Assembly: GCA_947630055.1 (NCBI GenBank) | Contig: CANRGA010000001.1 | Location: forward strand, 10,195 to 74,194 | Length of the DNA stretch: 64,000 bases | DNA from: an uncultured Bacilli bacterium | Lineage (GTDB): Bacteria > Bacillota_I > Bacilli_A > RF39 > UBA660 | Direction: 5' to 3' | Shown here: in pieces, positions 2,045 through 31,651 of the stretch | How positions within the stretch are numbered: position 1 is the stretch's first letter | How the letters are laid out: every line of letters starts with the position of its first letter | Notes under the pieces: model-generated | The model's database searches: none | Seen by the model: the letters and a program-made list of their open reading frames with translations, nothing else | Told to the model about the DNA's origin: nothing | Made by a program: the position numbers and the translations under genes

Positions 2045-2278
2045 ACATTTTCTCCTTTTTTAAATAATATTTTTACCCCTTCACTTATATATATAGAAGT
2101 TTTTTTACTAATTTCCTTTTATTTTTTTAATTTTTCTTTAAAAATTATTAAAAAATAGACTTTTGAATCATTTTTAAACTATATTTTAATAAATTTTATT
2201 TAATATTTCCTAAATATAATCTTGATAATAAAAATATGGTATGTTAAAATTAATGATAGAGAGTAGGTGTGTTTTTGT

Positions 2279-2980
2279 ATGAAAAAACTTGCTGCATTTT
2301 TTGCTATGTGCGCTTTAATTACAATGCCAGTTAATGCTGCATGTTCTTATACGGAAAAAGCAGAGGCTAATACAAAGGCCGCAAATGTAAAAATAAATTA
2401 TGAGGTTGTTGAAGATAAACAAGAATCTGATATGGGTACTTCAATAAATGAATATTTTAAAATTAGTATTTTAAATGTAACTAAAGAGTTATATGTTGTA
2501 GTTAGTAATGATGTTACTAATGATAAAGTTACTTATACTTTTGATGATGCTAAAGATGGTGTAATAACATTTAATTGGGATAACATTGAAACTATTACCA
2601 ATTTTACATTTACTATTTATGCTTCAAATCAAACTCCATGCTATAATGAAGAATTAAAAACTATTAGAAAACAAACACCAAGATTTAATGACTTTTCTAA
2701 TAGAGCTATATGTGATGGTATGGAAGATTTTTATTTATGTCAAAAATATACAAATATTGCTGAAATAGATGAAAGTATGTTTATTGAAAAAGTAGCAAGT
2801 TTTAAAGATGGCAAAATCACTGAAGAAGGTAAAGATGCTGAAAAAGAGAAAAAAGGAAATAGCATAATAAGTTTCTTAAGAAAAAATAGATGGTATATAA
2901 TAGGTGGATTATTAGTAATAGCTACTGGATCAGGTGTAGCTATAGTAATAAGAAATAGAAAATACAGGGAGGTTAAATAG
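2279..2980 (+). CDS. secreted protein with N-terminal signal peptide and C-terminal transmembrane anchor (first gene of the pilus operon)
   Basis: ATG at 2279 after GAGTAGGTG RBS. MKKLAAFFAMCALITMPVNA signal. C-terminal WYIIGGLLVIATGSGVAIVI then RNRKYREVK. Stop is 2 nt before the next start. Confidence 0.55.
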   Translation: MKKLAAFFAMCALITMPVNAACSYTEKAEANTKAANVKINYEVVEDKQESDMGTSINEYFKISILNVTKELYVVVSNDVTNDKVTYTFDDAKDGVITFNWDNIETITNFTFTIYASNQTPCYNEELKTIRKQTPRFNDFSNRAICDGMEDFYLCQKYTNIAEIDESMFIEKVASFKDGKITEEGKDAEKEKKGNSIISFLRKNRWYIIGGLLVIATGSGVAIVIRNRKYREVK

Positions 2981-2982
2981 TA

Positions 2983-5900
2983 ATGAAGAAAGTAGTAAAA
3001 TTAATAAGTCTATTTGGGCTATTATTAATGATTAATGCTTTAAGAGTAGAAGCGGATATAAAAGCAAATTCATATTCAGATGCAGGTTATTTTGGTGGTG
3101 AAAAAGTACTAGAAGCAAAATTAAATGTTAATGGTACTAACACTACTGCATATTGTCATAATCCAGGTGTTACTGCATTTACACAAAGTGATGTTAGTAA
3201 TAAAATAACTCTTGTAACAAAAAGAAAACTTGGTGATACTAAAAATGGTCGTGCTCAAAATATTTATGATGCCGGATTAATGTCAATTTTAACAAATAAT
3301 AATAAAGACAATGGAAATGCTAACTTTAGTATGGCTAAGTACATAGCAGTTAACTTATATGAACAATTATTCCCAATGTTCAATACCAATGGTAATAATG
3401 GTAGTTCAGAAATTCCTTATTTAAAATATATAGTTAATACACAATTGTATGATAGTGTTAAAGGTGATTTAAAAACATTATCAAATAATATGGGTGCTTA
3501 TAATGTTATTAGTAGTAGAATGAGCGGAGCTAGTAAATGTACTAGTAATTGTGGTTCTAGTTCTGATGTTAATACTGCAGTGTCAATGGTAAAAACTGCT
3601 TTAAAAACAGCTATTAACTATGCTCAAAATGGCGAGGCAACAGCTACAGTTGGTAATGCTATTCAAACTCGTTCAGAAACTAAAGATGATAAAGGAAAAG
3701 TTACTTATAAAGATACAGCAAATCATACAATTACAATTGCTTCATTTGGGGATTCTAATAATAGACCTCGTTCAGTTTATTTAAGCTTTAATTGTGCAAA
3801 TTGTAAAAATGTTACTACAAAATTTTATCTTAATGATAAAGAAGTTAATGATATATCAAAAATTAATTTATTAGATTATACAGATAATGGTTCTGGAGCT
3901 GTTCAATTAAAAATTGAATTTACTGGTGATACTTGTGAAGAAATCAATTACACATTAACAGCAACTTACACTCATTATTCTATTTCACGTTCTGGTTATT
4001 CAGTAGCTAAGTGTTCAAATTCTAATAAATGTCAAGGTTTCTATGTAGCTGATTCTAGTAGTTCAACTGGAACAAAAACAACTTCTATAGAAAATAAAAT
4101 AAGTTTATGTCCAACAAATGCTGATGTATCTCAATGTACTGCTAAAATTGATAATGTTGAATGTGTTGAATGCAAAGCTAATACTCATGAAGTAAACATT
4201 GTTGAAGGATATACTTATCCAAATGATAATACTTGTGATACTTCAGGAGCTACTTTAGATATTAAAAAGTGTATTGCAAATGATGGTGCTATAGATACAG
4301 CAAATCATACATATAAAAATAGTGAACTTTCTCAAGATACAAAAAGCCATAATGCTGGTGTATATTGTAAAGAAGATTATACTTTAAGTATGCCAGGCTC
4401 TATAATGGTTGATACTGGTAGATATTTTACTTTAAAATCATCTATTACAGGAACAGAGAAATGTTATACTAATGATTTATTAAATTCAAAAAGTGTAGCA
4501 AGTGTTAAAGCAACAATAGCGCAACATGGAAAAGAAACCGTAAATGCATATAATGAAATTCAAAAATATAAAGCAATTGAAGCTTGTGTTAATAATGGTG
4601 GAAATTGTATCACTGTAAAAAAAGAAAGAAATTCAACTCCATGTAAATATAAATATTATTTTGTATCATCTACTAGACATTGTAAAGAATGGAATGAAAG
4701 TGGTACTTCATGTGCTAAATATGAAACAGATGATGAATATTTGGCTAGATGTAAATCTTTAGGAAAATATGGATATATTAATTCATCTGGTACCTGTAGA
4801 TATATGCCAGAGGCAAAGCCTTTATATCAATATAGAATTGTTGCGGATTATAAAGTATCATATAATGTTTCTTCATGTGACGGAGGAGGTACTACAACCG
4901 CATCTGATAGAATATATGAAGGTGAGTGGCGTACTTGTGGATATGATCAATATTGTGGTGGAAAAAGATGTTCAGAAGTTTCTACTGAAGCTGATGATGA
5001 TACGATTCCAGAAGTAAGAGAAGAAGTTTCTGAAAATGAAAGAGCCGCAGCTTTAGCTGCTATAGGCCAAAAAGCAACAGGCCACTGGGTAAGTAATGGT
5101 GGTGTTGGTAGTAAGGTATCAGCAGGTGGTAGTTGGGTTGGATCATCAGGCTCTGGTTTAAGTGTACAATTAGGTACTGGTAGTATTATTTCTGATATAA
5201 ATGACTGGAACTCTGCTACTGGATATTATGGTGGTATATTTGGTAATGACTTTGATGATACACCATTCGATGGTGGTTGGAAAATGAGTTATAATTTTGA
5301 TCCAGATATGTATTTCTGGTATCAAGAAGAATATATGAAACAAGCTAGAACAAATCAAATGGATATGTATGATAAATCATTAAAAGATGTTAAGGCTCAA
5401 TATTGTGAAGGTACAGTATCTAATGATTATCAAACTTGTTCAACTGGTTGGAAAGATATTCCATCTGTTGAAAGTGGTAGCGTTTGTGTATGTTGGGGAC
5501 CTGATCCTGGAGACTGTGGAAATAAAAATTATGTATTATCTAAAGTAAGATATGTTATTCAGTCTCAAGAAGCAGAAGCAAAATTTATAACACCAACTCA
5601 ATTTTATACAATAGCACCATCTGGAAGTATAGTTGTAGCTGATCAAGGTAAAAGTGATGAAATACCAAATTCAAAAGAACTTACTAATGGTTTACCTGTT
5701 GGTCTTGGATCAAATGGTACAAGAAGATATGTATTATGGGTAGAAAAATTAGGTGAATATTTTGATACTGATAATTTAGGCCGTGTTTGGGGACAAAGTG
5801 ATAGTGTTATTTCTAAATTACTTAAAGATAGAACAAAATGTAATAATCCTAATTCAGCATTAGTAGATGAAGACAATACTCAAGGTGTAATTCATGATGA

Positions 5901-6807
5901 AGGAGTATATGCATGTAAGTATAGTACTGACTGTCCTAAATCATGTACTAAAGAAGATGATAAATATTATTGTAAAGATGGAGAACCTTGTGATAAAGAA
6001 CAATATGATAAAGAATGCTGTCCAACTTGTCCACCAACAGTAGCATATAAATGTGCTGTAACAACTAATGAAAAAGGTGAAACAGTATATTATGATAAAG
6101 CTGGTAATATAACTACTGAAAAGATTTATAAATCTGAATGTTGTCCTAATGACGAATGTCCTGTAACTTGTGCATTCTGCCTATATGATGGCAATAAGCT
6201 AAATGTTCAATATCGACCAATTACATCAGAGAATGTTAACCCTAATGATAGGGATTTAGGTAAAAACTGGAATTGGGAAGAGCCAATAAATACAGCTTTA
6301 GAATTAAAAGCCTATGTTACTACTAATGAAATAGAAGAAAATGGCGATAGCATTTATGATGTAAATTTTGATAATATAGATGAAAATAATGACTTTGCAA
6401 TGCAAGTTACAATGAATGCACAAATGATTAGTGAAATAAGAGCTTATAATGATAAATATAAAGATGAAGGATATGCTAATAACTCTCTTGAATGTTACGA
6501 TTTAAAAAGTGGTGATACAGTTCATAAAAATGTTTTCTGTTATAGTAACTTTATTGATACTTTAGTAGAAAAATTTGCTACAAATAAAGATGATAGTCCA
6601 ATTAAATTTAATGTAGAAAGACCAATGGGTAATGCAAGAAAAGATACAAAAGAAAATGAAAAATACTTTACTAGTTGGATTTCTGCTGATACTAGTAATT
6701 GGAATGTAACCACTACTAAAGAACTAGCATATTATAAACAACATTATGGTATGGAAATGCAAGATGATAAAGTTGTAGACTACCATGTTGGACCATCATG
6801 GAAATAG
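2983..6807 (+). CDS. large (1274 aa) cysteine-rich secreted protein, candidate pilus-associated adhesin
   Basis: Signal peptide MKKVVKLISLFGLLLMINALRVEA. Many paired cysteines (CPTCPP, ECCPNDECPVTC, CVECKANTHE). No recognisable catalytic motif. Translationally coupled to flanking genes. Confidence 0.65.
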   Translation: MKKVVKLISLFGLLLMINALRVEADIKANSYSDAGYFGGEKVLEAKLNVNGTNTTAYCHNPGVTAFTQSDVSNKITLVTKRKLGDTKNGRAQNIYDAGLMSILTNNNKDNGNANFSMAKYIAVNLYEQLFPMFNTNGNNGSSEIPYLKYIVNTQLYDSVKGDLKTLSNNMGAYNVISSRMSGASKCTSNCGSSSDVNTAVSMVKTALKTAINYAQNGEATATVGNAIQTRSETKDDKGKVTYKDTANHTITIASFGDSNNRPRSVYLSFNCANCKNVTTKFYLNDKEVNDISKINLLDYTDNGSGAVQLKIEFTGDTCEEINYTLTATYTHYSISRSGYSVAKCSNSNKCQGFYVADSSSSTGTKTTSIENKISLCPTNADVSQCTAKIDNVECVECKANTHEVNIVEGYTYPNDNTCDTSGATLDIKKCIANDGAIDTANHTYKNSELSQDTKSHNAGVYCKEDYTLSMPGSIMVDTGRYFTLKSSITGTEKCYTNDLLNSKSVASVKATIAQHGKETVNAYNEIQKYKAIEACVNNGGNCITVKKERNSTPCKYKYYFVSSTRHCKEWNESGTSCAKYETDDEYLARCKSLGKYGYINSSGTCRYMPEAKPLYQYRIVADYKVSYNVSSCDGGGTTTASDRIYEGEWRTCGYDQYCGGKRCSEVSTEADDDTIPEVREEVSENERAAALAAIGQKATGHWVSNGGVGSKVSAGGSWVGSSGSGLSVQLGTGSIISDINDWNSATGYYGGIFGNDFDDTPFDGGWKMSYNFDPDMYFWYQEEYMKQARTNQMDMYDKSLKDVKAQYCEGTVSNDYQTCSTGWKDIPSVESGSVCVCWGPDPGDCGNKNYVLSKVRYVIQSQEAEAKFITPTQFYTIAPSGSIVVADQGKSDEIPNSKELTNGLPVGLGSNGTRRYVLWVEKLGEYFDTDNLGRVWGQSDSVISKLLKDRTKCNNPNSALVDEDNTQGVIHDEGVYACKYSTDCPKSCTKEDDKYYCKDGEPCDKEQYDKECCPTCPPTVAYKCAVTTNEKGETVYYDKAGNITTEKIYKSECCPNDECPVTCAFCLYDGNKLNVQYRPITSENVNPNDRDLGKNWNWEEPINTALELKAYVTTNEIEENGDSIYDVNFDNIDENNDFAMQVTMNAQMISEIRAYNDKYKDEGYANNSLECYDLKSGDTVHKNVFCYSNFIDTLVEKFATNKDDSPIKFNVERPMGNARKDTKENEKYFTSWISADTSNWNVTTTKELAYYKQHYGMEMQDDKVVDYHVGPSWK

Positions 6808-6823
6808 GAAGAAGGGATATTAG

Positions 6824-7231
6824 ATGAAGGAATCGTATTGGGGATATTGGTTAGTTTTATTAGGTGTATTTGTTGTCGTAATATTGTTATTGATTCAAAA
6901 CTTAACAACAAATAATACAGAAAGCAGTTATTCTATAAGACAAATAAGTGAAGCAGCGATGATTGATGCAGTTGACTATGCATATTATAGAGAATATGGT
7001 GAACTTAAAATAAATAGAGAAAAATTTATTGAAAGTTTTATGAGAAGATTTGCTGAAACAGCTTCATTATCAAACAAATATACTTTAACATTTGCTGGTA
7101 TATATGAAGCACCACCTAAAGTAGGTGTTCAAATAACCAGTAAAACAAATACATATTTTATTGCAAATTCTGCTGAAGAATTTGATATGGAGAATAGAGT
7201 AGAAGCAATATTAGAACAAAGTAATAAATAG
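6824..7231 (+). CDS. small N-terminally membrane-anchored protein, pilus assembly accessory candidate
   Basis: RBS GAAGAAGGGA. Single TM WLVLLGVFVVVILLLI. Operon position between the adhesin-like gene and the CpaB-like gene. Confidence 0.45.
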   Translation: MKESYWGYWLVLLGVFVVVILLLIQNLTTNNTESSYSIRQISEAAMIDAVDYAYYREYGELKINREKFIESFMRRFAETASLSNKYTLTFAGIYEAPPKVGVQITSKTNTYFIANSAEEFDMENRVEAILEQSNK

Positions 7232-7242
7232 GAGGAATAAAA

Positions 7243-8010
7243 ATGGGAAATTTAGTGGCAACATTAAAACGATTTATTCAAAATAAAAATACAGTTACTA
7301 TTTTAGCCGTACTTGCTGGTATTATAATATTATGGTATTTTTATAACTATCGAGTAAATCAAGCCGTAACGACTGTTGAAATACCTTATGCAATTGATCA
7401 AATAGATACACGAAAGAAAATTGAAACAGATAATCTTAAAACTAGAGAAATAACAAGAGCTGCTTTAAAAGATAATGATTTAGTTGAATCAATTGCAGAT
7501 TTAGAGGGTAAATACATATGTGTAGGAACTAGCATACCTGCAAATGGCTTTTTCCATAAATCACAAGTTTGTGAAGAAAGAGATTTACCGAATTCTGTTA
7601 ATGAAAACTTACCAGAAGGATATACTCTTGCTAATATAAAAGTTACAAATGAGACTACATATGCTAACTCTATATCTGAAGGTGATTATATCGATATTTA
7701 TATGTATGCTAAAGATGCTAATAATCAAGCATTATATGGTAAATTAATTGAGAAAATCAAAGTACTAGAAGTAAGAGATAATAGTGGTAAAAATATATTC
7801 TGGGATGCGACTGCTGGTGAATCTGCTCAATTATTATTTGGTGTTCCAGATGAATATGCTGATTTATTCGATATAGCAAGTAGAACAAATGGTATTACTT
7901 TAGTACCTAGATTAAGAAATGCTGCTTATTCAAAAAATCCAGGTGAAACTGAAATTTCTAGTGAAGAATTAAGAGCATTTATAATGAATCAAGTACAATT
8001 AGTAGAATAG
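7243..8010 (+). CDS. CpaB/RcpC-like Flp pilus assembly protein (N-terminal TM, SAF-like domain)
   Basis: 255 aa. TM VTILAVLAGIIILWYFY. Size, topology and position immediately upstream of the CpaF-like ATPase. Confidence 0.4.
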   Translation: MGNLVATLKRFIQNKNTVTILAVLAGIIILWYFYNYRVNQAVTTVEIPYAIDQIDTRKKIETDNLKTREITRAALKDNDLVESIADLEGKYICVGTSIPANGFFHKSQVCEERDLPNSVNENLPEGYTLANIKVTNETTYANSISEGDYIDIYMYAKDANNQALYGKLIEKIKVLEVRDNSGKNIFWDATAGESAQLLFGVPDEYADLFDIASRTNGITLVPRLRNAAYSKNPGETEISSEELRAFIMNQVQLVE

Positions 8011-8033
8011 AAAGGGAAAGGACGGGGCTTTAA

Positions 8034-9125
8034 GTGAATGATGCAATATTTTCACAAATTGATTTTGGACCTTTAAAAGAATTTTTAGATGATGATAATA
8101 TAACCGATATTTCTTATGGAAATGGTGGACAAATTCATTTAAAAACTTTGGATAAAGGTGTTTATCGTATTGAAAAGCCAGAAATAAATAATGCACTTTT
8201 AGAAAAATTAGCTTTTCAATGTTCCAATGTTATGGGAAAAACATTTAATATGGCCCATCCATTTCTTGATGCAGAATCAGCTGAATTACGTTTAAACTTT
8301 ATTCATGATTCTATTGCTACTAATGGAATAGCTTGTGTTATCAGAAAAACACCTGCTAAAATAAGACTTAATAAAAAAAAATTAATAAGTGAAAAATATG
8401 TAACTGAAAATTTATTGGACTTTTTACTTACGTGTGTTGAAGGACATTGTAACATTATTGTAAGTGGAGAAACTGGTAGTGGTAAAACAGAACTTGTTAA
8501 ATATTTAGCCAGTCACACTAAAGAAAATGAAAAAGTTATAACAATTGAAGATACACTAGAACTACACTTAGATAAAATTTTTCCTCATCGTGATATAGTA
8601 GCAATGAAAACTAATAATATAGCTAGTTATAGTGATGTATTAGTAGCCTGCATGAGACAAAACCCACGATGGATTTTACTATCCGAAGTTCGTAGTGCTG
8701 AAGCTGTTACGGCAGTTCGTAACTCAATATCATCTGGACATAATATTTTATCTACTATTCACTCAGATCGAGCTTTAAATGTGCCAATGCGTATGTATTC
8801 GTTACTAGAATCAAATCAAGATATTGATCAATTTTTAAAATCAATTCATAGATATGTTCAACTTGCTATTCATGTTAAAGGATATATGAGTGCTGAACTT
8901 GGAAGATTCCAAAGAGAAATAGTAGAAGTTTGTGAATTTTATGTTGATGAAGATAATAATGCGGGTGCTAATATAATATATAAAAAGAATTTAGATGGAG
9001 CAATTCATTTTAATAATCCAACAAAACATTTAAAAGAATATTTAGGCAGTCAAGGAGTTGTTATTAAAGACAATTTATTTGTTGCAGATAATGAATCAAA
9101 TGAAGAAGCAATAGATACATTATAA
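8034..9125 (+). CDS. CpaF/TadA-family secretion ATPase (VirB11-like)
   Basis: Walker A IIVSGETGSGKTE. Asp box ITIEDTLEL. Walker B-like RWILLSEVR. His box LSTIHSD. 363 aa. GTG start with GGACGGGG RBS. Confidence 0.85.
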   Translation: MNDAIFSQIDFGPLKEFLDDDNITDISYGNGGQIHLKTLDKGVYRIEKPEINNALLEKLAFQCSNVMGKTFNMAHPFLDAESAELRLNFIHDSIATNGIACVIRKTPAKIRLNKKKLISEKYVTENLLDFLLTCVEGHCNIIVSGETGSGKTELVKYLASHTKENEKVITIEDTLELHLDKIFPHRDIVAMKTNNIASYSDVLVACMRQNPRWILLSEVRSAEAVTAVRNSISSGHNILSTIHSDRALNVPMRMYSLLESNQDIDQFLKSIHRYVQLAIHVKGYMSAELGRFQREIVEVCEFYVDEDNNAGANIIYKKNLDGAIHFNNPTKHLKEYLGSQGVVIKDNLFVADNESNEEAIDTL

Positions 9126-9143
9126 AAAGGGAGGTGCATAATT

Positions 9144-10049
9144 TTGCGAACATTACCAGAATTAATAATTATGATAGGACTTGCAATATTTGTTATCATA
9201 TATCGTAATAATCAAAATGGTAAGTCTTATAAAGAAGTTTTGAAAAAAGCTGAAGACATATACGACAAATATGCACCGTATTCTTTTAAAGTTGTAAGAG
9301 AAAAAAGTAAGGAATTAGGTCAAGAATATACTACAAAACAATATGTAATGCAAATAGTAATAATGGGTGGATTTGCTGCTTTAATTGGTTATTTCTATTT
9401 TTATAGTATTATTTGGGCTGCAGTATATGCAGTTGCAACAGTAGCATTTATTCCTTATTTAGCTTATTTACGTTGTCAAAGAGTATATAGTGAATTTATA
9501 TTTGAACAAATTCAAACATATACTACTAACGTTATTATGGAATTTAATACTACTCAAAGCTTTGTAAAAAGTTTAGAGGGTGTTAGAGATTCTGGTATAA
9601 TAGAAGAACCTGTACTTTCTGATATAAAAAAAATGATAGATTTATCTTACAAGAATGGTACAATTGATGAATCTATTGAATATTTCAATCAAAAGTATCC
9701 ATTTTATATGGTTAAAAATATGCATCAATTATTTTTACAAATAACCAAAGAAGGTGCAAAAGATGCGGGAGAATCATTAGAAAACATGTCAATGGATATC
9801 GATGCCCTAGTTGAAGGTGTTTATCGTGATCAAATGGATAGAAAAAATTTCCATAAAAGATTTATAACTTTTGCTGTAGTATTATTTTCTTTAGTTGTAG
9901 TAGTAGAATTTATGTTAGGTAAAGATAACTATATAGAACTTTTAGATATATGGTATGTTCAGTTAATATTACATGCTATTGTTTTAATAAATGTATATTT
10001 CTTGATAACAGGAGAGAAATATTATAATGAAGATGTGGGGGCTGAATAA
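9144..10049 (+). CDS. TadB-like inner-membrane platform protein (T2SSF-type)
   Basis: TTG start after AGGGAGGTG RBS. TM blocks at N-terminus, middle and C-terminus as in TadB. Directly downstream of the ATPase. Confidence 0.55.
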   Translation: MRTLPELIIMIGLAIFVIIYRNNQNGKSYKEVLKKAEDIYDKYAPYSFKVVREKSKELGQEYTTKQYVMQIVIMGGFAALIGYFYFYSIIWAAVYAVATVAFIPYLAYLRCQRVYSEFIFEQIQTYTTNVIMEFNTTQSFVKSLEGVRDSGIIEEPVLSDIKKMIDLSYKNGTIDESIEYFNQKYPFYMVKNMHQLFLQITKEGAKDAGESLENMSMDIDALVEGVYRDQMDRKNFHKRFITFAVVLFSLVVVVEFMLGKDNYIELLDIWYVQLILHAIVLINVYFLITGEKYYNEDVGAE

Positions 10050-10837
10050 TGCAAGTAGAAATAATTATTATTGGTATTCTAATCTTTGTTGTAATGACTT
10101 ATAATGGTCAAGTTAGTATTAAAGATTTAATTAGTGATAACTTTTATTTATTTAGAAAGTTAAAAGAAGACGATTGGGATTTTTATGTTAGTGCAAAATA
10201 TGGAGATAGTGTTTCATCTGATGCAATTTTTATGAAGAGAATTCGAAATGGTTTAATGGTAATTGTAATTAGTTTATTTTTCTTCATAAGACAACTTGAT
10301 GCTCTTTATATATTAATATCTTTTGTTTTAGGTTTCTTAGTATTTAAAATGGACTATATGAATATTAAATCTTATTATAAAACTCATATGTTTAAAATAG
10401 ATAGTATGTTACCTCACTATTTAAAAAGTATTGAAATATTAATTCAACACTATACAGTTCCAGTTGCTATTGGTAAATCAATAATTGATGCACCTGATAT
10501 ATTTAAAGATGGATTACAAGAAATGATTAATGAAATAAATTCAGGTGATGACTCAATTAACCCTTATATGAATTTTGCTAAAAAATATCCGGTAAGAGAT
10601 TCAATGCGTATGATGCGTCTTTTATATCGTTTAAGCTTAGGAAGTCAAGATCGTAAACAAGAACAAATGTTGATGTTTTCAAGAACAATATCTAATTTAC
10701 AACAAAAAGCTAGAGAGACGAAATATAAAAATAGACTTGATAAGATGGAAGGCAAAACAATGAATATGTTAATGTCAACTGGTTTTGGAGTAATGATCTT
10801 ATTAGTCCTAGCCGTATTACAAATGATGGATTTATAA
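10049..10837 (+). CDS. TadC-like inner-membrane platform protein (T2SSF-type)
   Basis: Start overlaps TadB stop. Three hydrophobic blocks with TadC-like spacing. Confidence 0.55.
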   Translation: MQVEIIIIGILIFVVMTYNGQVSIKDLISDNFYLFRKLKEDDWDFYVSAKYGDSVSSDAIFMKRIRNGLMVIVISLFFFIRQLDALYILISFVLGFLVFKMDYMNIKSYYKTHMFKIDSMLPHYLKSIEILIQHYTVPVAIGKSIIDAPDIFKDGLQEMINEINSGDDSINPYMNFAKKYPVRDSMRMMRLLYRLSLGSQDRKQEQMLMFSRTISNLQQKARETKYKNRLDKMEGKTMNMLMSTGFGVMILLVLAVLQMMDL

Positions 10838-10861
10838 AATTCCTTTATAGGAATTTTTTAT
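10838..10861 (+). terminator. rho-independent terminator after tadC-like gene
   Basis: AATTCCTTTATAGGAATT hairpin followed by TTTTT. Confidence 0.6.
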
Positions 10862-10930
10862 ATTATTGCGTAAATTTATATAAAATTTTTAAAAATATTT
10901 ATTTTATTTGTCAAATATTATAAATATTAA

Positions 10931-10959
10931 TTGCTATTTTGTATTATTTTGGTTATAAT
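10931..10959 (+). promoter_or_regulatory. sigma-A type promoter for the pilin genes (TTGCTA-17-TATAAT, TG-extended)
   Basis: TTGCTA 10931..10936, 17-nt spacer, TGGTTATAAT 10950..10959. 30 nt upstream of strong RBS AAAGGAGGAA. Confidence 0.55.
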
Positions 10960-10990
10960 ATTTATAGATAATAAAGGAGGAATGTAATTT

Positions 10991-11269
10991 ATGAAAGAAG
11001 CAACAGGTGAATTAAATATGACAGTTGTAACAGTTGTAGCAATTGCAGCATTAGTAGCTTTCTTTTATTTAGTAATATGGCCAACTATTAAAACAGGTAT
11101 GGCATTAAACTCTGCTTGTAGTACATATGCATCAACTGGTGGTACAGTTACTTTAGATGATGGTGGTACTATTGTATGTACAAAGAAAACTGCAACAACA
11201 ACGGCAACATGTACTTACAATCCATCTGCAACCGAAGGTGGAAAACCACAAACTAAAAACTGTGAATAA
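10991..11269 (+). CDS. Flp-like pilin with atypical class III leader (MKEATG/ELN...), Cys-containing C-terminus
   Basis: Short charged leader KEATG followed by 25-aa hydrophobic helix. 4 Cys in C-terminal half. Strong RBS. Confidence 0.5.
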   Translation: MKEATGELNMTVVTVVAIAALVAFFYLVIWPTIKTGMALNSACSTYASTGGTVTLDDGGTIVCTKKTATTTATCTYNPSATEGGKPQTKNCE

Positions 11270-11285
11270 TAGTGAGTAGTAATAT

Positions 11286-11552
11286 ATGAAAGAGACAACA
11301 GGTGAATTAAACGCTACTGTAGCAGTTATGTTAGCTATTGGTGTTTTAATAGCTTTTTTTTACTATACTTTGTGGCCACTTATTAAAAATAATTTCGATA
11401 AAAATTCTCAATGTAGTAAAGCTATATGTGAAAAATGCGATTTAAATGGTGATGGAAAAGCAGATGTTGGATGCGAAACAGTAACTTGTTATCCAAAAGG
11501 TGAAGAACATCAACCTGGTGTAAATGACTTTCAATGTGTCTATAAAGGTTAA
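11286..11552 (+). CDS. Flp-like pilin paralog (MKETTG/ELN...), 6 Cys
   Basis: Same leader and helix as 10991. C-terminus CSKAICEKCDLNGDGKADVGCETVTC. Confidence 0.5.
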   Translation: MKETTGELNATVAVMLAIGVLIAFFYYTLWPLIKNNFDKNSQCSKAICEKCDLNGDGKADVGCETVTCYPKGEEHQPGVNDFQCVYKG

Positions 11553-11566
11553 GGAAGTGGAATAAA

Positions 11567-12079
11567 ATGCGGGAAGCAATTGGAGGAATATCCATATTTC
11601 AAATAGTTATATTTTTTATATTGTTATTTACAGGGGTTATGTGCTTAACTATTAATCACTCTAAAGCTTTTGGCGTTAAAGATGAAATAATAACAATAAT
11701 AGAAAATGAACCATTAGGAAGTACTTCTACTTCTTCTTTTGGTTTGAGTGAAAGTACAATGGATAAAATTGCTGAGCATTTAAAAGATGCTGGATATAGA
11801 ATTACTGGTAATTGTCCGAATGGATATCAAGGATATAATCGGGAAGGAAATCCCACTAATAATGATGCATCATTTTGTATAAAAGCTAATAAGGTAGAAG
11901 ATAAATTTTATAAAGATGCTAGAGAAAAATGTACTGGCAATAAATGTGTTGTTACAACTGGTGATTTTCCAAATATGGTATACTACGATATAGTATTATT
12001 TTTCCAATTAGACATTCCATTTGTTAAAGATTTATTTGAATTTAATGTAATGGGTTCTACTAAGACTATATTTGGATAG
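11567..12079 (+). CDS. TadE-like minor pilin/pseudopilin (MREAIGG/ISIF...)
   Basis: Leader REAIGG then hydrophobic helix. 170 aa. Operon context. Confidence 0.45.
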   Translation: MREAIGGISIFQIVIFFILLFTGVMCLTINHSKAFGVKDEIITIIENEPLGSTSTSSFGLSESTMDKIAEHLKDAGYRITGNCPNGYQGYNREGNPTNNDASFCIKANKVEDKFYKDAREKCTGNKCVVTTGDFPNMVYYDIVLFFQLDIPFVKDLFEFNVMGSTKTIFG

Positions 12080-12089
12080 GTGATATAAA

Positions 12090-12551
12090 ATGCGCGAATC
12101 AATAGGAACTCAAACAATTTTTAAAGCTGTCTTGATTTTCACTTTTTTATTTTCTGGCTTTATTGCAGTTGCAATAACATATAATAAAGCCTTTAAATTA
12201 AAAAATGAGACTATTAATATTTTAGAAAAATATGAAGGCGTTAATAAACAATCTTTAACTATCATTAATAACTATTTGAATCAAAATGGTTATTCTACTA
12301 AAAATCCTTGTGATACCACTGAATATGGAGTAGCAGATTTAAAAAATCCAACATATGAAAAAAGTAATCCTAATAGTAGGTATTATTATTGTCTTTCTTC
12401 TGAGGTAAAAAATAATCAAATATTTTATGGTATTAAATTATTTTCAAGATTTAATTTACCTATAATTGGAGATTTATTCTATTTTAGAGTTACTGGAGAG
12501 ACAAAAGGTATTAAATTATATGATAATAAACAAAGATTAGAAAATAATTAG
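12090..12551 (+). CDS. TadE-like minor pilin/pseudopilin paralog (MRESIG/TQTIF...)
   Basis: Same leader class. 153 aa. Confidence 0.45.
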   Translation: MRESIGTQTIFKAVLIFTFLFSGFIAVAITYNKAFKLKNETINILEKYEGVNKQSLTIINNYLNQNGYSTKNPCDTTEYGVADLKNPTYEKSNPNSRYYYCLSSEVKNNQIFYGIKLFSRFNLPIIGDLFYFRVTGETKGIKLYDNKQRLENN

Positions 12552-12557
12552 GGAGAT

Positions 12558-13544
12558 GTGAATATGAATGTAATAGTATCAAATAAATATCAATCATTAC
12601 TAGGAACACTAGAAATAGATGTAATTAAAACAATTAATGGTGAATTTACGGTTCAAGATTTGGTAAATCAATTTAATAATTTTTTCTTTAATAAAATGAT
12701 AATTGATATAACTGCTATTAAAAATTATGAAAATATTAATATAATGCGGGAATTATCATTGAATTTTGAAATGGATAAAATAATTATCTTGTTAGATGAT
12801 TCACCAAGTGTAAATTCAGCAAATTATTTATCTCAATTGGTATCTTTTGGTATTTATAATTTTACAAGAAGTGTAGATGCTATTCCATTTTTAATAGATA
12901 ATCCAAATTCTTATAAAGATGTAGCGGCATATCAAAATTTAAATCCAGATACTAATTTGGACAGTAAAAAAGTTAAAGAAATTGCTCCTGTTAAAATGGA
13001 GCAAAGAGTAATTGGCTTTAAGAATGTTACTGAACATGCAGGAGCTACTACTTTAATATATATGTTAAAAAAGCATTTACAAAGTGAATATAAAGTTAAA
13101 GCAATTGAAGTAAATGCAACCGATTTTGAAAATTTTAATGATAAATCACTTGAAAGTGCTGATTTTATGAATATTTCAATAAAATTAGCAAATAATAGTG
13201 ATGCCGATGTTATTTTAGTGGATTTAAATGATGGTCCAGAAACAATTTGTACCGAAATTATTTATCTAATTGAACCAGGTATTTTAAAATTAAATAAATT
13301 AATTAGGAATGATCGAAAAATATTTGAAAAATTAAAGAATAAAAAAATCGTTTTAAATAGAAGTGTTTTAAACGATAAAGATGTTCATGATTTTGAATAT
13401 GAAAGTGGTAGTAAAATATTCTTTAATATTCCAAGTTTAGATGAAAAATTAGATAATAATAAAAAAATAATTGAATTTTTAATTGCTTTAGGATTTTCTA
13501 GATTAGATGTAGAAAATAATAATAAAAAATTTGGTATTTTATAA
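12558..13544 (+). CDS. TadZ/CpaE-like protein (receiver-like N-domain plus degenerate ParA/MinD-like domain)
   Basis: Deviant P-loop region VIGFKNVTEHAGATTLIYMLKK. N-terminal alpha/beta region. Last gene of operon. Confidence 0.35.
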   Translation: MNMNVIVSNKYQSLLGTLEIDVIKTINGEFTVQDLVNQFNNFFFNKMIIDITAIKNYENINIMRELSLNFEMDKIIILLDDSPSVNSANYLSQLVSFGIYNFTRSVDAIPFLIDNPNSYKDVAAYQNLNPDTNLDSKKVKEIAPVKMEQRVIGFKNVTEHAGATTLIYMLKKHLQSEYKVKAIEVNATDFENFNDKSLESADFMNISIKLANNSDADVILVDLNDGPETICTEIIYLIEPGILKLNKLIRNDRKIFEKLKNKKIVLNRSVLNDKDVHDFEYESGSKIFFNIPSLDEKLDNNKKIIEFLIALGFSRLDVENNNKKFGIL

Positions 13545-13558
13545 TAAGTAAGATAAAG

Positions 13559-13583
13559 TCTCTAGTAATAGAGATTTTTTTTA
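13559..13583 (+). terminator. rho-independent terminator ending the pilus operon
   Basis: TCTCTAGTAATAGAGA hairpin followed by TTTTTTTTT. Confidence 0.6.
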
Positions 13584-13620: not shown

Positions 13621-13800
13621 GAATTAAGGTGGTCTCATTATTTAAAATTAATAAAGATAGATAATGAAATTAAAAGAAGACAAAAATTTCATTAAAGATC
13701 CATATGTATTAGAATTTTTAGATATAAAAGAAAAATACTGGATAATTTTGCTATATTGTGGTATTATATGAAACAATTGATTTTGAAGGGGTGTTTTGTT

Positions 13801-16800
13801 ATGAAATACGCAAAATATAAGTATATATTTATGTTATTTTTAGTGATCATTTTTTTACCATTTAAAGTTATGGCCAAAAATATTAATTTAGATATTGATA
13901 AATATGATTTAACTATTGGTGATGAAATAACAGTAAGTGTTAGTTTACCAGATGAAATAAAAGCTTATGCAGTTATGGCAACTTTTACTTATGATGAAAA
14001 TGTTTTTACTAAAATAGATATTGATGATTTTTCTATTTTAAATAAAAATTTAAATATTTCTTATAATGATAATACTAAAAAATTTGGTTTAATAAACGAA
14101 ACAGGTAAATTAGATAATGAATTATTTCAAGTTCATTTAAAAGTAAAGGAAAATGCTAATGTTGGCGATACTAATATAGCTTTAACAAATATAGTAGTGT
14201 CTGATGGAACAAAGAAAGAAGAATATAATAAGACTATTAAAACTATTTTAGTTACAAGAGATGCTAAGCCTGGTGAAGAAATACCTATTAATAAATCTAA
14301 TAAAGTAGAAGAAAGTAAAGAAATTGAAACTAAAGTATTTACATCTAAGCCGTTTATGATTACTTTAGGTATAAGTGCTATTGTAATTTTAGGATTAGTG
14401 ATTTATATTACCTTATTTAAAAAAGATAAAAAGACTTTAAAAAATATTCTTGTTGGTTGTGCAACTATTTTAACCATTTCTTTTGTAGTTATATATATAT
14501 TTAATATTAATAAAAGAGATGTTAATAATGATGGAGTTAAAGATTACAATGATGCAAAAGAAATACTTAAATATCTTTTAGATATTACAGGTACTGAAGA
14601 AATTGATAATAATAAAAATACTTCTAATAAAAAACCAAGTATTAACCCAAATAATAAATATGATGTTAATAATGATGGTAAAATTGATATAAATGATGTT
14701 GGTAATAATACGGAAAATGTTACTGAAAATACAAAAGTGATTTTAAAAGAAAAGAACGATAATAAAGATTTTTATGTCAAAAAAGGTGATATTACTTTAA
14801 AATTTACTGCAGAAATTACACCTAAAAATGTAACAATAACTAAAGTAAAAATTAATAATAAATATTATGATGTTATCAATAATAATGGCGAATATTCTGT
14901 TACTATAGAGTCTAATAAAGCAGGTAAATACGAATTTGCTATTACTAGTGTTATTTTATCTAATGGCAAAGAAATAAATGTTAAACTTAAATTTGTAAGA
15001 GAAGTTTTAAAAGTTACTCCTTATGTTAATAAATTTAATTTAAATGATGAAAAAGGTTCTTTAAGTTTTGAACTAGTAGATCCAGAAGATGCTTTTATTA
15101 GTGGTGAAGTTACTGTTTATGATGGTGAAAAAGTAATTGTCAAAGAAAATGTTAAAAGTACAACTAAAATTAATGATATTCCTATTGATGAAGATAAAAT
15201 TTATCGTTTAGAAGTAATGGGAGAATATGATTTAGATAGCAATAAAAATGATGATAATAATCATTTTACTAATCAAACTATGTTTAACCATTCCTTTATG
15301 ATAGGGGGAGATTATAACTTCACTTTAACTGATGTAGGAATTACAGATGCGATTAAAAAGGGTGAAAAGCCAGTTATAAGTTTTAAAAGTACAAATACTA
15401 AAGGAGTGACTGTTGAAAATGCTTCTTTAACTATTGGAAATAAAACTAATAATTATGTCATTAGTAAAATAGATGGTGATAATTATGAAGTTATTTTAGA
15501 AGATGCTGATACATCTGTAGGTAAACATAAAGTAAATTTAGATAGTGTTAGATTAAAATCTTTAAAGACGTTTAATAATAAAAAAGACTATGATGCTAAT
15601 ACACTAACTTATACTGTGTTAAAAGATTCGCCAAAAGTAACTAGTTTGAATGTAGAAGAAGATTCCGAAAATAAAAGTATTATTGCTAAATTTAGTATAA
15701 ATGATGAAAGTAGTGCTATTAGTAGTTTAAAAGTTGTTTTAGTAGATTCAACTGGAGCAGTTATTGCATCACAAATTTTAACAAGAGAAGAATACTTAGA
15801 AAAAGGTGAAGTATCACTATCTTATGATGGTAGTACAGATGGTAATTATAAAGTTAAAATTTTAGCTGATTATGCCCTAAGTGATCAATATAACTATACT
15901 GATAAACCAATTGGGGAAGAAGCAATTACAGTTAATACTGGTGTATATATTGAAGCTATTGAATATGTTGAAACAAAACAAAATAATCGTGTTATTGATA
16001 GTGGTAAATTTGCTAGTAAAGGCCAAAAAATGTATCGAATGAACTTTATCGTTCATACCAAAGGAATAAGATCATATTCACGTCTTTCATCTATTACGAT
16101 TAATGGTTTAAATTATATTGCTAATGGTGGAGCATCTGCCATAGAAAATGCTGAAGGTGAATATAGATATACCTCAACTGTTGCTATTACTGTGCCAAAA
16201 GAAGCAGGTATTATGACAATTACTGCTAATCGTGTTCAATTAGAAGTTAATAGTTATAATTACAAGGTTAATCAATTTTATCATGTTCCAGATGTATCTA
16301 AAGAATATGAAGTATTAAAAGATATTCCAAGTATTGCTAATTTAAAAATACAAAAAGAAGATTATGAAGCAAAAGAAGTTACTTTTAATTTTGATGTTAT
16401 CGACAAAGAAGATTCATTTATAAGTGGTAAATTAGAATTAAATGGTAAGAGTGAAGAGATAAATAAAGGTAATAATACAGTTACTTTTACTGGTATTGAA
16501 ACTGATAAAGTTCATGATTTGATTTTTAAAGCTGATTATAAATTAAGTACTGGTGAAATTGAAGATCCAATTAATCAAACAGAAAAAAGTAATGCGGAAA
16601 TATATAAAGTTAAATATGGTTTATATAAAGAAGATACTTATAATGATATTAAGATAAGTGAAATTACTCCAGTTAGTGAAAAGAACAATAAATATTTTGA
16701 AAAAAACGAAGATATTAAATTAAATCTTATTATTGTAGGCATTCCCGAGTATTTAAATGTTTATCCAGAAAGAGTTATTATTAATGATAAAGAATATGAT

Positions 16801-21174: not shown

Positions 21175-21195
21175 GTAAAATTATTCATCTTTTTT
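21168..21195 (+). terminator. rho-independent terminator overlapping the protease stop codon
   Basis: TGAATA..TATTCA hairpin followed by TCTTTTTT. Confidence 0.55.
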
Positions 21196-21353
21196 ATGAG
21201 AAAATATATTAACCTGTGTGAATATTTTATGAAATTTTTCAAAATAAAAAGGAAATTAGCCTATGAGTGACGAATAATATATATGAAAGGAGAAAAAAAT
21301 ATATGAAAAATTATAATTAAATTGTAAAAAGATATGGAACAAATTAATTAAAA

Positions 21354-22313
21354 ATGAAAGGCAAAATTATGACAGAAGAAAAAATATACAACGAAATAGT
21401 TGAGTTAATTGAAGAAAGAGAAGTAAAAAAGTTTGTTAGAGAATTTAAAGAAAATTCAGAAACATTAAAAACTAATTGGGAGATAGGTAGATTACTAGTT
21501 AATGCTCAAGGTGGAGAAGCTAGAGCAAAATATGGTGAAAATCTAATTAAGAAATGGGGCGAAAAATTATCTTTAGAATATGGTAAGAATTATAATAAAA
21601 GAAATCTTATGTATTATAGACAATTTTACTTAACATTTCAAAATGTGAACACAGTGTGTTCACAATTTAGTTGGTCAATATGTAGATGCTTATTATCAAT
21701 AAAAAATGAGAATGAGAGAAACTATTATATAAATCAAGTAATACTTAATAATTTATCTGTTAGAGAGTTAAGAAATGAAATAAAAAGTAAAGCCTTTGAT
21801 AGATTATCTTATGCAGATAAAAATAACATTAAGTTAATAACAGAGAATAATAATTCAATAACATTAAGTGATATGATAAAAGATCCGATAATTATTAAAA
21901 CTGATAAAGATACAACTAATTTAACTGAACAAAAATTACATGAAATATTAATTGAGTTAGTTGAAAATCATTATATGGAATTAGGAGCAGGTTTTGCTTT
22001 AATAGGTCATGAATATAAATGCAAAATAGATAATAGAACTTATAAAATAGATTTATTATTCTTTAATTATAAAATAAATGCCTTTGTTGTAGTAGAAGTG
22101 AAGATAAAAGAATATAATCCAAAAGATAGAGGGCAAATAGAATTATATATGGATTATGTTGATAAAAATATAAAAGAAAATTATCATAATAAAACAGAAG
22201 GTATATTAGTAGTTAGAGAAAAGAATAAACTAGTTACTAAATATATTTCTAATAATAATTTATATATTACTACTTATTTATTAGAAAATAAAAAAGTACA
22301 AAATGGCAAATAA
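21354..22313 (+). CDS. DUF1016/YhcG-like PD-(D/E)xK nuclease family protein (intact, 319 aa)
   Basis: ELGAGFALIGHEYKCKIDNRTYKIDLLFFNYKINAFVVVEVKIKE core. N-domain homologous to copies at 89..2044. Confidence 0.75.
   Translation: MKGKIMTEEKIYNEIVELIEEREVKKFVREFKENSETLKTNWEIGRLLVNAQGGEARAKYGENLIKKWGEKLSLEYGKNYNKRNLMYYRQFYLTFQNVNTVCSQFSWSICRCLLSIKNENERNYYINQVILNNLSVRELRNEIKSKAFDRLSYADKNNIKLITENNNSITLSDMIKDPIIIKTDKDTTNLTEQKLHEILIELVENHYMELGAGFALIGHEYKCKIDNRTYKIDLLFFNYKINAFVVVEVKIKEYNPKDRGQIELYMDYVDKNIKENYHNKTEGILVVREKNKLVTKYISNNNLYITTYLLENKKVQNGK
21644..21664. repeat. perfect 10-bp inverted repeat, 1-nt spacer (TGTGAACACA g TGTGTTCACA) at the homologous position of the plus-strand DUF1016 copy
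   Basis: Read directly. Encodes NVNTVCSQFSW. Extended arms are imperfect (one bulged A). Confidence 0.9.
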
Positions 22314-28862: not shown

Positions 28863-28884
28863 TATATGAAGGAGGAATAGAAAG

Positions 28885-29205
28885 GTGAATAATTATTTAA
28901 TACCAGCAAATACAAAGAAATCACAATTAATGTTAGGTTTTTTTACCCCATTGGATTTAGCTATATTTGCAATTGGTTGCTTATGGACACTTATTATGGT
29001 ACTTTTGATAAAAAGTATTAATATGCTTGTTTTAATTCTAATATTATTACCAGCATTAATATCGGCGTTTTTGGTAATGCCAGTACCTCATTATCATAAT
29101 GTATTGCAATTACTAACAAATATTTTCAACTTTTATACAAACAGAAGACGATATTATTGGAAAGGATGGAGTATGTATGAAGAATTCGGAACAAGCGATA
29201 AGTAA
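28885..29205 (+). CDS. VirB3-like small two-TM T4SS protein
   Basis: 106 aa, two hydrophobic helices. Immediately precedes the VirB4 modules. Confidence 0.4.
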   Translation: MNNYLIPANTKKSQLMLGFFTPLDLAIFAIGCLWTLIMVLLIKSINMLVLILILLPALISAFLVMPVPHYHNVLQLLTNIFNFYTNRRRYYWKGWSMYEEFGTSDK

Positions 29206-31527: not shown

Positions 31528-31551
31528 AATAAAATAATTAGATGTAAAAAA

Positions 31552-31574: not shown

Positions 31575-31651
31575 ATCTTTATATCATAAATAAATTGGCT
31601 TTTTTTTACTATTAATGTATGATAAAATATTAAATAGAAGAAGGTGGTAAA

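Follow-up and report, generated by a model that had tools for sequence, protein, structure and literature searches.

The twelve genes at positions 2279 to 13544 of a 64-kb stretch of DNA (hereafter the window; contig CANRGA010000001.1 of an uncultured Bacilli bacterium) form a real pilus-assembly operon that is distantly related to Tad systems and makes up the upstream half of a type IV secretion locus. We consider it probable that they code for a type IV filament machine of a divergent Tad-like kind and for an adhesin cassette, and that the whole serves as the cell-contact module of the adjoining monoderm type IV secretion system (T4SS). The module is neither a canonical Tad/Flp pilus nor a VirB11 accessory. 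An earlier interpretation of the same DNA made from its letters alone (the sequence-only reading) had described a Tad-like operon, and this holds for the type of machine, with an ATPase, a pair of platform proteins, a CpaB-like and a TadZ-like protein and prepilin-like N-termini all in place, but not for Flp, TadE/F, TadV or the grouping of the ATPase with CpaF/TadA; it had also overlooked the T4SS context and the homology to the 'VirB11' region of plasmids. The analysis was computational throughout, with relatives taken from a genome scan and a plasmid collection. The open reading frames (ORFs) of the operon are listed below, with lengths in amino acids (aa).

2279..2980, + strand: 233-aa protein with a signal peptide and a C-terminal transmembrane (TM) anchor, no LPXTG; putative anchor of the adhesin cassette
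2983..6807, + strand: 1274-aa secreted Cys-rich protein ending in GPSWK; putative displayed adhesin
6824..7231, + strand: DUF5411 protein with an N-terminal TM helix and an ectodomain of ~100 aa (PF17424, 5.7e-53)
7243..8010, + strand: CpaB/RcpC-like bitopic protein (TIGR03177, RcpC)
8034..9125, + strand: hexameric ATPase of the secretion superfamily, Firmicute conjugation-associated clade (Pfam T2SSE, 2.5e-29)
9144..10049, + strand: TadB-like polytopic platform protein, a divergent member of the T2SSF family (match to the plasmid TadB-like profile)
10049..10837, + strand: TadC-like platform paralogue (hhalign to genuine TadB/TadC)
10991..11269, + strand: pilin 1, 92 aa, with MKEATG as leader; E and a hydrophobic helix follow, and the C-terminal domain contains Cys
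11286..11552, + strand: pilin 2, 88 aa, tandem paralogue of pilin 1 (first 110 nucleotides (nt) 70% identical)
11567..12079, + strand: pseudopilin-like protein 1, 170 aa, leader MREAIGG, DUF4320-related
12090..12551, + strand: pseudopilin-like protein 2, 153 aa, leader MRESIGT, DUF4320-related
12558..13544, + strand: TadZ-like protein with an N-terminal alpha/beta domain and a C-terminal ParA/MinD-fold domain (AlphaFold2 model, Foldseek)

The best plasmid matches of the ATPase are genes annotated as 'CpaF/VirB11 family' on Gram-positive plasmids; the majority of these plasmids are typed as conjugative or mobilizable. A gene order is shared by pZB18 (pMG1-like) and by pLS20-like, Virgibacillus and Listeria plasmids, on which a thioester/isopeptide adhesin comes first and is followed by a DUF5411-like protein of ~125 aa, the ATPase, two membrane proteins of ~265 and ~245 aa and a DUF4320 protein of ~120 aa, after which there are small one-helix proteins and then VirB2-like, VirD4 and VirB6 genes. 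A Priestia plasmid and pBMB67, the latter of which we take to be pAW63/pXO2-like, additionally carry genes for an SLH and a large protein as well as for a SAF/CpaB protein and a ParA-like ATPase. Both direct and profile searches tie the DUF5411, CpaB-like, TadB-like and TadC-like proteins of the window to the plasmid proteins (hhalign 99.8-100% for the TadB-like and TadC-like proteins), and linkage to VirD4 and other T4SS genes was found at six plasmid loci and at one locus in a Terrisporobacter metagenome-assembled genome (MAG). Judged by these sequence comparisons the module as a whole shares its ancestry with the 'VirB11 region' of conjugative plasmids of the pLS20, pMG1/pZB18, pAW63/pBMB67 and Listeria types. 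The papers describing pAW63 and pLS20 call the ATPase VirB11 and its neighbours unknown or conserved hypothetical (PMC1196294, PMC8557374). In the literature that we searched we found no account of the plasmid module as a pilus or type IV filament, although coverage was incomplete and earlier recognition is possible.

When set beside this plasmid region (pLS20 genes 34-41, pAW63 coding sequences 17-26, pBMB67, pZB18, pLIS25 and the Virgibacillus and Priestia plasmids), the window has an ATPase of the same clade (98% support) and the same complement of a large surface protein, a DUF5411-type protein, the ATPase, TadB-like and TadC-like proteins and small pilin-like and DUF4320-type proteins, with CpaB and a ParA-like protein as further members, together with linkage to VirB4, VirD4, VirB6 and VirB3. 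Unlike the plasmid regions, the locus is chromosomal and lies amid housekeeping genes, and Pfam searches of all window ORFs of at least 80 aa gave no relaxase, integrase or replication domain. Where the plasmid adhesins are of thioester, isopeptide or SLH type the window has a lineage-specific Cys-rich protein, the leader of its pilins is MKEATG as opposed to MLDQN(T/A)DR in the small plasmid proteins, and its operon ends, unlike the plasmid modules, with a TadZ-like gene whose product is without the P-loop Lys. Near-identical DNA was found in neither plasmid nor phage collections, and a phage origin was rejected, the matches in the phage collection being only unannotated metagenomic contigs at no more than 34% identity. 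Plasmids of B. anthracis of ~181.6 kb, which is the size of pXO1, carry a homologue of the TadB-like protein (28.7% identity, 8e-22) and a 94.7-kb B. anthracis plasmid carries one of the ATPase; from these matches the module seems to be present on anthrax virulence plasmids.

The genes that follow the operon in the window are an insertion and then the T4SS, as listed here.

13756..22313, + strand: insertion peculiar to this genome, with an M26-type protease gene and a DUF1016/YhcG gene (Pfam, synteny in relatives)
22398-22763, 22861-23970, 24153-24875 and 25714-26574, + strand: four genes with a VirB2-like T4SS_pilin domain (PF18895, 2e-4 for the first gene)
24891-25619, + strand: TMEM164-family polytopic protein, 242 aa (5.7e-18), interrupting the VirB2-like set
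26589..38636, + strand: T4SS core (Pfam), made up of the genes on the lines below
26589-28862, + strand: VirB6-like
28885-29205, + strand: VirB3/PrgI-like, followed by a 187-aa protein
29740-31527, + strand: VirB4
31652-34504, + strand: cell-wall hydrolase with M23 and lysozyme domains
34479-35438 and 35441-36358, + strand: two bitopic paralogues of 305-319 aa, lacking any known domain, between the hydrolase and VirD4; unannotated components of the T4SS
36417-38636, + strand: VirD4 coupling protein

By its gene content (VirB4, VirD4, VirB6-like, VirB3/PrgI-like, hydrolase) this T4SS is monoderm and resembles the FATA class of mating-pair formation (MPF) systems. Its VirB4 is 29.6% identical over the full length to the VirB4 of pBMB67/pAW63-type plasmids, the pBMB67 group being the closest. 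The four VirB2-like proteins have in common a C-terminal two-helix domain that can be seen in their sequences, and three of them (369, 240 and 286 aa) are fused to N-terminal Cys-containing secreted ectodomains, which is unusual for VirB2. The TMEM164-like gene has no counterpart in any related locus.

The 8.6 kb between the pilus module and the T4SS contain, at 13756-21174, a gene for a 2472-aa surface protein with a C-terminal M26 (IgA1-protease/ZmpB-like) region (1.1e-31), a GLUG motif and dockerin-like repeats. The M26 gene was found in none of 80 related loci and the DUF1016 gene of this segment in only one of 80, and because they are unmatched in relatives, where the flanking genes are adjacent, we regard 13756-22313 as an insertion that splits a single locus. 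In related chromosomal loci a VirB2-like gene lies within 1.5 kb after the TadZ-like gene in 36 of 43 cases, and VirB6, VirB3 and VirB4 follow in every locus where the fetched DNA extends that far.

These relatives come from a genome scan with one genome per GTDB species, in which the ATPase was recovered at 64-91% identity in ~77 MAG contigs labelled as uncultured Bacilli, Tenericutes, Mycoplasma, Clostridium sp. CAG:914 or Candidatus Onthousia. The named relatives are gut or faecal MAGs, NCBI places Ca. Onthousia in Bacilli incertae sedis, and the labels presumably correspond to the order RF39. Median identities in the related loci are 75% for the ATPase, 64% for TadB, 59% for TadC and 71% for VirB4, compared with 44-46% for the pilins and 31% for the pseudopilin-like proteins; the machinery is conserved and the exposed parts diverge fast. 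One relative in which neighbouring genes are shared gave identities of 82% for NusG, 79% for the ATPase, 70% for the TadB-like protein and 48% for SecE, and since the values for the ATPase and TadB-like protein fall among those of NusG and SecE the locus, in this single comparison of sequences, diverges like the housekeeping genes of the chromosome. At least 7,998 TadB-like and at least 5,388 TadZ-like clusters at 90% identity are present in public genome and metagenome data.

All four motifs that had been reported for the ATPase were found and are invariant across its relatives, namely Walker A (G145-ETGSGKT152), the Asp box (E172-D173-E176), Walker B (S217-E218) and the His box (H236/H243). 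With the NCBIfam models it scored 110 bits (109.6) for VirB11, 94 for TrbB, 92 for TadA-conj, 88 for FlaI and 82 (82.5) for ComGA, all of them far under the respective cut-offs; that of the VirB11 model TIGR02788 is 249.95 bits, which leaves the protein below curated VirB11/TrbB membership. Among solved structures (PDB) the best matches were CpaF (70 bits), archaeal GspE2 (65), FlaI (64.5) and VirB11 (56), with PilT, PilB and GspE scoring much lower than CpaF, FlaI and VirB11. In a neighbour-joining tree of 20 sequences (301 columns, 100 bootstraps) the ATPases of gut Bacilli and the 'VirB11' ATPases of Firmicute plasmids formed one clade with 98% bootstrap support, which lay outside the VirB11 clade (98%) and was unjoined to Ralstonia CpaF or to the actinobacterial Tad ATPases; the deep nodes of this tree are weak (66-67% support). 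On these scores and this tree the ATPase is a clade of its own, neither VirB11 nor grouped with the CpaF/actinobacterial Tad references. According to the sequence-only reading, clustering with SpoIIIA or competence ATPases would count against a Tad system; the tree gave no such clustering, and membership of TadA was likewise not obtained. A SpoIIIA-type system was rejected, no SpoIIIA-type family appearing in the best 25 of 43 NCBIfam matches or in the PDB list for the ATPase. A related idea exists for Actinobacteria, in the form of the NCBI model name 'TadA family conjugal transfer-associated ATPase'.

These comparisons also bear on two other roles for the ATPase. It could be a true VirB11-type energiser of the T4SS, its neighbours being channel accessories and no type IV filament being made. 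VirB11 is its top NCBIfam match, it always accompanies VirB4 and VirD4 and VirB11 is what the literature calls it (PMC1196294, PMC8557374); its score is nevertheless far under the VirB11 cut-off, the tree places it outside the well supported VirB11 clade, and VirB11 systems carry no TadB/TadC-type pair, CpaB, ParA-like TadZ or prepilin-like genes such as are found here, and we give this explanation little chance. The second, a pilus for DNA uptake of the competence type, like the Com pilus or that of Tad-dependent transformation in Micrococcus, strikes us as very improbable. The 82.5 bits obtained with ComGA would agree with it, and a host with a reduced genome, as the MAG labels suggest, might scavenge DNA, but the window has no ComEA-, ComEC- or ComFA-type genes, ATPases of the PilB/GspE type score well under CpaF, FlaI and VirB11, and the context is that of a T4SS.

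Following the ATPase, as in Tad/Flp systems, are two paralogous single-domain platform proteins of the T2SSF family, and the TadB-like and TadC-like labels given to them earlier are borne out, the two being paralogues of each other (hhalign 85%) and homologous to genuine TadB/TadC. The informative hhalign reference consisted of six genuine TadB/TadC sequences, against which the TadC-like profile gave 95.4% (E 1.7e-8, 159 columns); the TadB-like profile matched the plasmid TadB-like set at 99.8%, and this plasmid set in turn matched genuine TadB/TadC at 95.9%. With Ralstonia TadB/TadC alone, a reference from a single source, the values were only 7-16%. A Pfam search of 26 TadB-like and 28 TadC-like relatives and of remote representatives returned a T2SSF match solely for the Priestia plasmid member, Foldseek found no significant match for a model of the TadB-like protein (predicted local distance difference test, pLDDT, 65), and profiles of the TadB-like, TadC-like and TadZ-like proteins had no match among the sequences of solved structures.

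The CpaB-like protein matches TIGR03177 over nearly its full length (8e-10, residues 18-231) and RcpC at 3.2e-6, and the earlier assignment is upheld even though both matches are under the curated cut-offs (38 bits against 71 for TIGR03177). Its relatives match Ralstonia CpaB at 1e-5 and number one to three copies in related loci. The DUF5411 gene is present in 68 related loci as the conserved first gene of the machine; its product is homologous (4e-6) to that of the small gene before the ATPase on the Virgibacillus plasmid, and in Priestia the gene at the same position is annotated as DUF5411. No functional description of this family was found in the literature. The last protein of the operon had been called TadZ-like, a label which is sustained at the level of the fold and finds no sequence-level match to TadZ. 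Its AlphaFold2 model (pLDDT 73) has two domains, and Foldseek matched the C-terminal one to ParA (3cwq, E 3.6e-5, target-normalised TM-score 0.55) and to the MinD (4v02) and HypB folds, with E values of 4e-5 to 9e-5 and TM-scores of ~0.5. The P-loop is degenerate, reading HAGATT with no Walker A Lys, and in the family it follows the pattern x-T-x-H-A-G-A/S-T-T. At the sequence level there were no named relatives and no link to the plasmid ParA-like or actinobacterial TadZ-like proteins; the modelled product of 12558-13544 fits TadZ/CpaE in architecture only.

The four small proteins share a type of leader for which statistics were compiled from 68 pilin and 75 pseudopilin-like sequences out of related loci. 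In the pilins the leader is conserved as K2 (94%), E3 (83%), A4 (89%), T5 (80%), G6 (91%) and E7 (94%), followed by L-N-M-T and ~20 hydrophobic residues, while the pseudopilin-like proteins begin with M-R/K-E/D-A/S-I/F-G-G and have G6 in 86% of cases; a common leader M-[KR]-[ED]-[AS]-x-G is present in 57 of the 68 pilins and 61 of the 75 pseudopilin-like proteins. Outside the leader both kinds of protein are just 31-46% identical between species, and since the leader is conserved while the remainder is not, it is under separate constraint. Such conservation is as expected of a prepilin-peptidase site with Gly at -1. The sequence-only reading had placed two pilins and two TadE-like pseudopilins in a Tad/Flp-like operon, and neither Flp nor TadE holds as a name for these proteins. 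The pilins have no PF04964 match and no G/XXXXEY motif, their leader MKEATG being followed by ELNMT, and hhalign against Flp gave 0.4%. The pseudopilin-like family is unmatched by PF07811 and gave 0.7% against TadE, being related instead to plasmid DUF4320 (hhalign 90.5%, E 1.3e-6), for which reasons the TadE label fails. By sequence, the data show prepilin-like proteins of a new class, whose cleavage we infer.

Several features of the locus are those of Tad/Flp systems, including monoderm ones: a CpaB/SAF protein, a protein with a TadZ-like modelled fold, one ATPase, a TadB and TadC pair, small pilin(s) and two larger minor pilin-like proteins, with platform proteins that are homologous and CpaF as the best solved relative of the ATPase. 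In contrast to these systems the locus has an ATPase that forms a clade apart, lacks the Flp motif G/XXXXEY, the domains of TadE, TadF and TadG and a TadV, and has an extra DUF5411 protein and a physical linkage to a T4SS. This bears on whether the genes might encode an autonomous Tad/Flp (type IVc) pilus for adhesion in host or surface colonisation, with no functional link to the T4SS, which we think unlikely. Such a pilus would agree with the resemblance in gene set and order to monoderm Tad loci on Rhodococcus and Streptomyces plasmids, with the affinity of the ATPase to CpaF, with a promoter-like site of the operon's own, with its distance of 8.6 kb from the T4SS in this window and with the 7 of 43 loci that have no VirB2-like gene directly after the operon. 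It is opposed by the conservation of the T4SS linkage in the other 36 chromosomal loci and in six plasmid loci, by the nature of the separation seen here, which is a lineage-specific insertion, by the position of the ATPase outside the CpaF/actinobacterial Tad grouping and by the missing Flp and TadE signatures. In the Tad loci of Rhodococcus pRHL2 and of the Streptomyces plasmid the order is SAF, TadZ-like, ATPase, two T2SSF, small pilin, two TadE and TadG, and next in each comes a very large peptidoglycan-binding protein of the LysM kind, reminiscent of the theme of a large surface protein.

A large surface protein always occupies the slot upstream of DUF5411, be it of the thioester, isopeptide or Ig-like kind, an SLH protein paired with a large one, or Cys-rich. 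The first two genes of the operon had been said, misleadingly, to be without counterpart in described loci; plasmid relatives hold either an anchor and large-surface-protein pair or an adhesin in the same place. The 233-aa protein has hydrophobic segments at residues 4-23 and 205-226, no significant Pfam match and homologues (24-43% identical) in 41 related loci. A signal peptide and 49 Cys, but no anchor, are present in the 1274-aa protein, which is matched by no Pfam or NCBIfam model, and only 11 homologues of it were found among 5.8 billion proteins; its positional counterparts in 62 related loci have a median length of 1036 aa and a median Cys content of 3.4%. Conservation is limited to a segment at ~430-530 and to the C-terminal ~500 aa, with the N-terminus and residues 550-760 variable, a pattern which suggests a constant half for docking and a variable half for binding. 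The motif GP[SA]W[KR] is the exact C-terminal end in 27 of 63 large proteins located just upstream of DUF5411, the bodies of which are highly divergent, and this tail (6787-6807 in the window) may be a C-terminal docking or sorting tag. Three others of the 63 terminate in [DE]-W-P. From the conservation pattern and the plasmid analogues (pairs of an SLH and a large protein; the pLS20 protein TIE) a displayed adhesin plus anchor is a reasonable inference for the first two genes, in keeping with the tip adhesin and anchor that the sequence-only reading had surmised. TIE, which sits in the adhesin slot of pLS20 and is not anchored by sortase, was shown experimentally to be needed if conjugation in liquid is to be efficient (PMC8092201).

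The same genes could instead constitute a T2SS-like or Kil-like piston, in which a non-extended pseudopilus drives the Cys-rich protein, perhaps along with other cargo, across the wall for secretion or contact-dependent antagonism and not for mating-pair formation. A Sec-dependent large protein without a wall anchor always stands at the head of the operon, the GP[SA]W[KR] tail of 27 of 63 such proteins could be a recognition tag, there are two kinds of minor pseudopilin-like proteins and no relaxase is nearby, all of which would suit a piston. No toxin or enzyme domain was detected in the large protein, however, and the pLS20 protein in the same slot acts as a conjugation adhesin (PMC8092201); the piston overlaps with the filament and adhesin module that we favour and differs from it in output only, and we rate it as improbable.

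The operon consists of 12 colinear ORFs on the + strand, running from 2279/2267 to 13544 in AT-rich DNA (22-34% G+C across the window), which corrects the 13 genes and the end at 13583 given before; the last gene stops at 13544 and no coding ORF terminates at 13583. The genes are tightly packed, with gaps of 2-23 nt, one 1-nt overlap (10049) and one gap of 153 nt ahead of the first pilin gene (10991). An ORF at 13612-13695 resembles, as judged by eye, a remnant of DUF1016. Two promoter-like sites are relevant here.

2222..2250, + strand: promoter-like site TTGATA-17-TAAAAT with TG, before the first gene (consensus match only)
10931..10959, + strand: promoter-like site TTGCTA-17-TATAAT, inside the 153-nt gap (consensus match only)

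The 153-nt gap contains in order an AT-rich hairpin, the TTGCTA-17-TATAAT site and a strong ribosome-binding site, AAAGGAGG. The internal promoter proposed in front of the pilins is plausible in so far as a consensus site and a strong ribosome-binding site are present, but such sites are as frequent in shuffled AT-rich DNA, the window having 101 promoter-like matches compared with 91 +/- 8.5 in shuffles, which is no enrichment.

A number of observations weigh against a filament machine serving the T4SS. The small proteins, 100 pilin and pseudopilin-like sequences of which were scanned together, gave no match to Flp, TadE or N_methyl, and archaeal Pilin_N was found in 5 of the 100, weakly and below threshold. 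The peptidase Peptidase_A24, already noted as missing by the sequence-only reading, is absent from the window ORFs of at least 80 aa in Pfam searches and from the ten commonest neighbour families of related loci, and a single-sequence phmmer search with Ralstonia TadV matched no ORF of ~80 related loci. Because no prepilin peptidase was found in the window, the neighbour families or the related loci, the small proteins may go unprocessed and be no more than bitopic proteins of the membrane. Compared directly with TadB/TadC, the TadB-like profile matches weakly (58.5%), the label TadZ-like draws on a model of pLDDT 73 and a generic SIMIBI fold, and 7 of the 43 related loci are without a recognisable VirB2-like gene directly after the operon. 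There is no relaxase among the window ORFs, and the T4SS may therefore not be conjugative here. Finally, the evidence is all computational, and the filament, its processing and any transfer are predictions from the genes.

The absence of a peptidase from the locus is in itself unremarkable, since type IV filament systems commonly have theirs encoded elsewhere (PMC6668835). Recurrent neighbours in related loci include a membrane thioredoxin (18 loci), a sortase (15), a CPBP/Rce1-like intramembrane protease (10) and Ig-like surface proteins. A membrane-anchored thioredoxin fits with Cys-rich exported proteins, and the CPBP/Rce1-like protease is a speculative candidate for processing of the leader. 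On pZB18 a CPBP protease is annotated upstream of the adhesin as well.

Other known systems offer partial parallels. As regards generic features of type IV filaments, the ATPase and platform are present and the pilins have a conserved leader ending in Gly and a hydrophobic helix, recognised by no model. The thin type IV pili of IncI plasmids (R64, TP114 PilV) are filaments beside a conjugative T4SS, with variable adhesins, and are needed for mating in liquid (PMC9045228; PMC12102498). This likeness is one of functional analogy, with homology shown only to the superfamily level, the IncI pilus being a diderm type IVb (T4b) system with a PilQ-type ATPase, a secretin and a shufflon, unlike the module of the window. 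In Patescibacteria there are chromosomal, relaxase-less MPF-FATA-like T4SSs with arrays of VirB2-like pilins, for which an attached Tad-like module is not described (PMC12102498). By gene content these resemble the window in being chromosomal, in a lineage with reduced genomes, with several VirB2-like genes of the PF18895 type and no relaxase nearby, although the phylum is different. Archaeal type IV pili with class III signal peptides have a leader that is similarly short, ends in Gly and carries no Glu at +5, and FlaI and GspE2 are among the best matches of the ATPase; matches to Pilin_N are, however, below significance, the platform pair is of the TadB/TadC type and the host is bacterial.

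If the module works as we favour, the prepilin-like proteins would be inserted in the membrane and cut after Gly6 by a peptidase encoded elsewhere, and the ATPase-platform complex would polymerise them into a short pilus or pseudopilus crossing the wall. The CpaB-like and DUF5411 proteins would be envelope-spanning accessories, and the TadZ-like protein with its degenerate P-loop may be a scaffold or localiser. The filament would carry or release the large disulfide-rich protein, whose conserved C-terminal half would serve for docking and whose variable N-terminal part would attach to the target cell, the small TM protein anchoring the large one in the membrane. Contact made in this way would let the adjoining T4SS engage the partner cell.

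The remaining genes of the window are housekeeping in nature (SecE, NusG, BipA, TyrS, BacA, YebC, tRNA), and among them at 59721-60905 is a gene for an IS605-family OrfB/TnpB (Cas12f-like TNB domain). Paralogues of the DUF1016/YhcG PDDEXK nuclease at 89-1267, 1457-2044 and 21354-22313 flank the locus and the insertion. The copies upstream are a partial tandem duplication with 80-95% nt identity, and metagenome assemblies break at the DUF1016 repeats, upstream of 2279; the repeats may mediate rearrangements.

For the organism itself we would put forward, as a possibility that we lean against more than towards, that a large uncultured lineage of gut Bacilli, its genomes apparently reduced, carries fixed in its chromosome a composite of a Tad-like filament (with a new class of pilin, the MKEATG leader and possibly a non-A24 peptidase) and a relaxase-less T4SS with VirB2-like arrays, which it may use for obligatory cell contact and not for plasmid transfer, whether in acquiring DNA or nutrients or in attaching to partner bacteria or the host, and that the same module is the 'sex pilus' of Gram-positive plasmids. 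If true, this composite machine would parallel the essential T4SS of epibiotic Patescibacteria and, by extension, the module would be the long-sought 'sex pilus' of those Gram-positive plasmids that mate efficiently in liquid. A review from 2025 describes Gram-positive T4SSs as being without VirB11 homologues (PMC12857230), and the paper on the pLS20 adhesin states that they seem not to develop pili (PMC8092201). Plasmid pLS20 mates efficiently in liquid (PMC8092201), as does pMG1 to go by a title cited in PMC13492992, and apart from a few adhesins there is little to explain how donors of this kind locate recipients in liquid. The locus shows that a widespread lineage of monoderm T4SSs (among them those of pLS20, pAW63/pXO2-like, pMG1-like and Listeria plasmids) has a complete set of genes for type IV filament assembly beside the gene for an adhesin. 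The locus also offers a lead to the function of thousands of 'hypothetical' proteins that are as yet unannotated.

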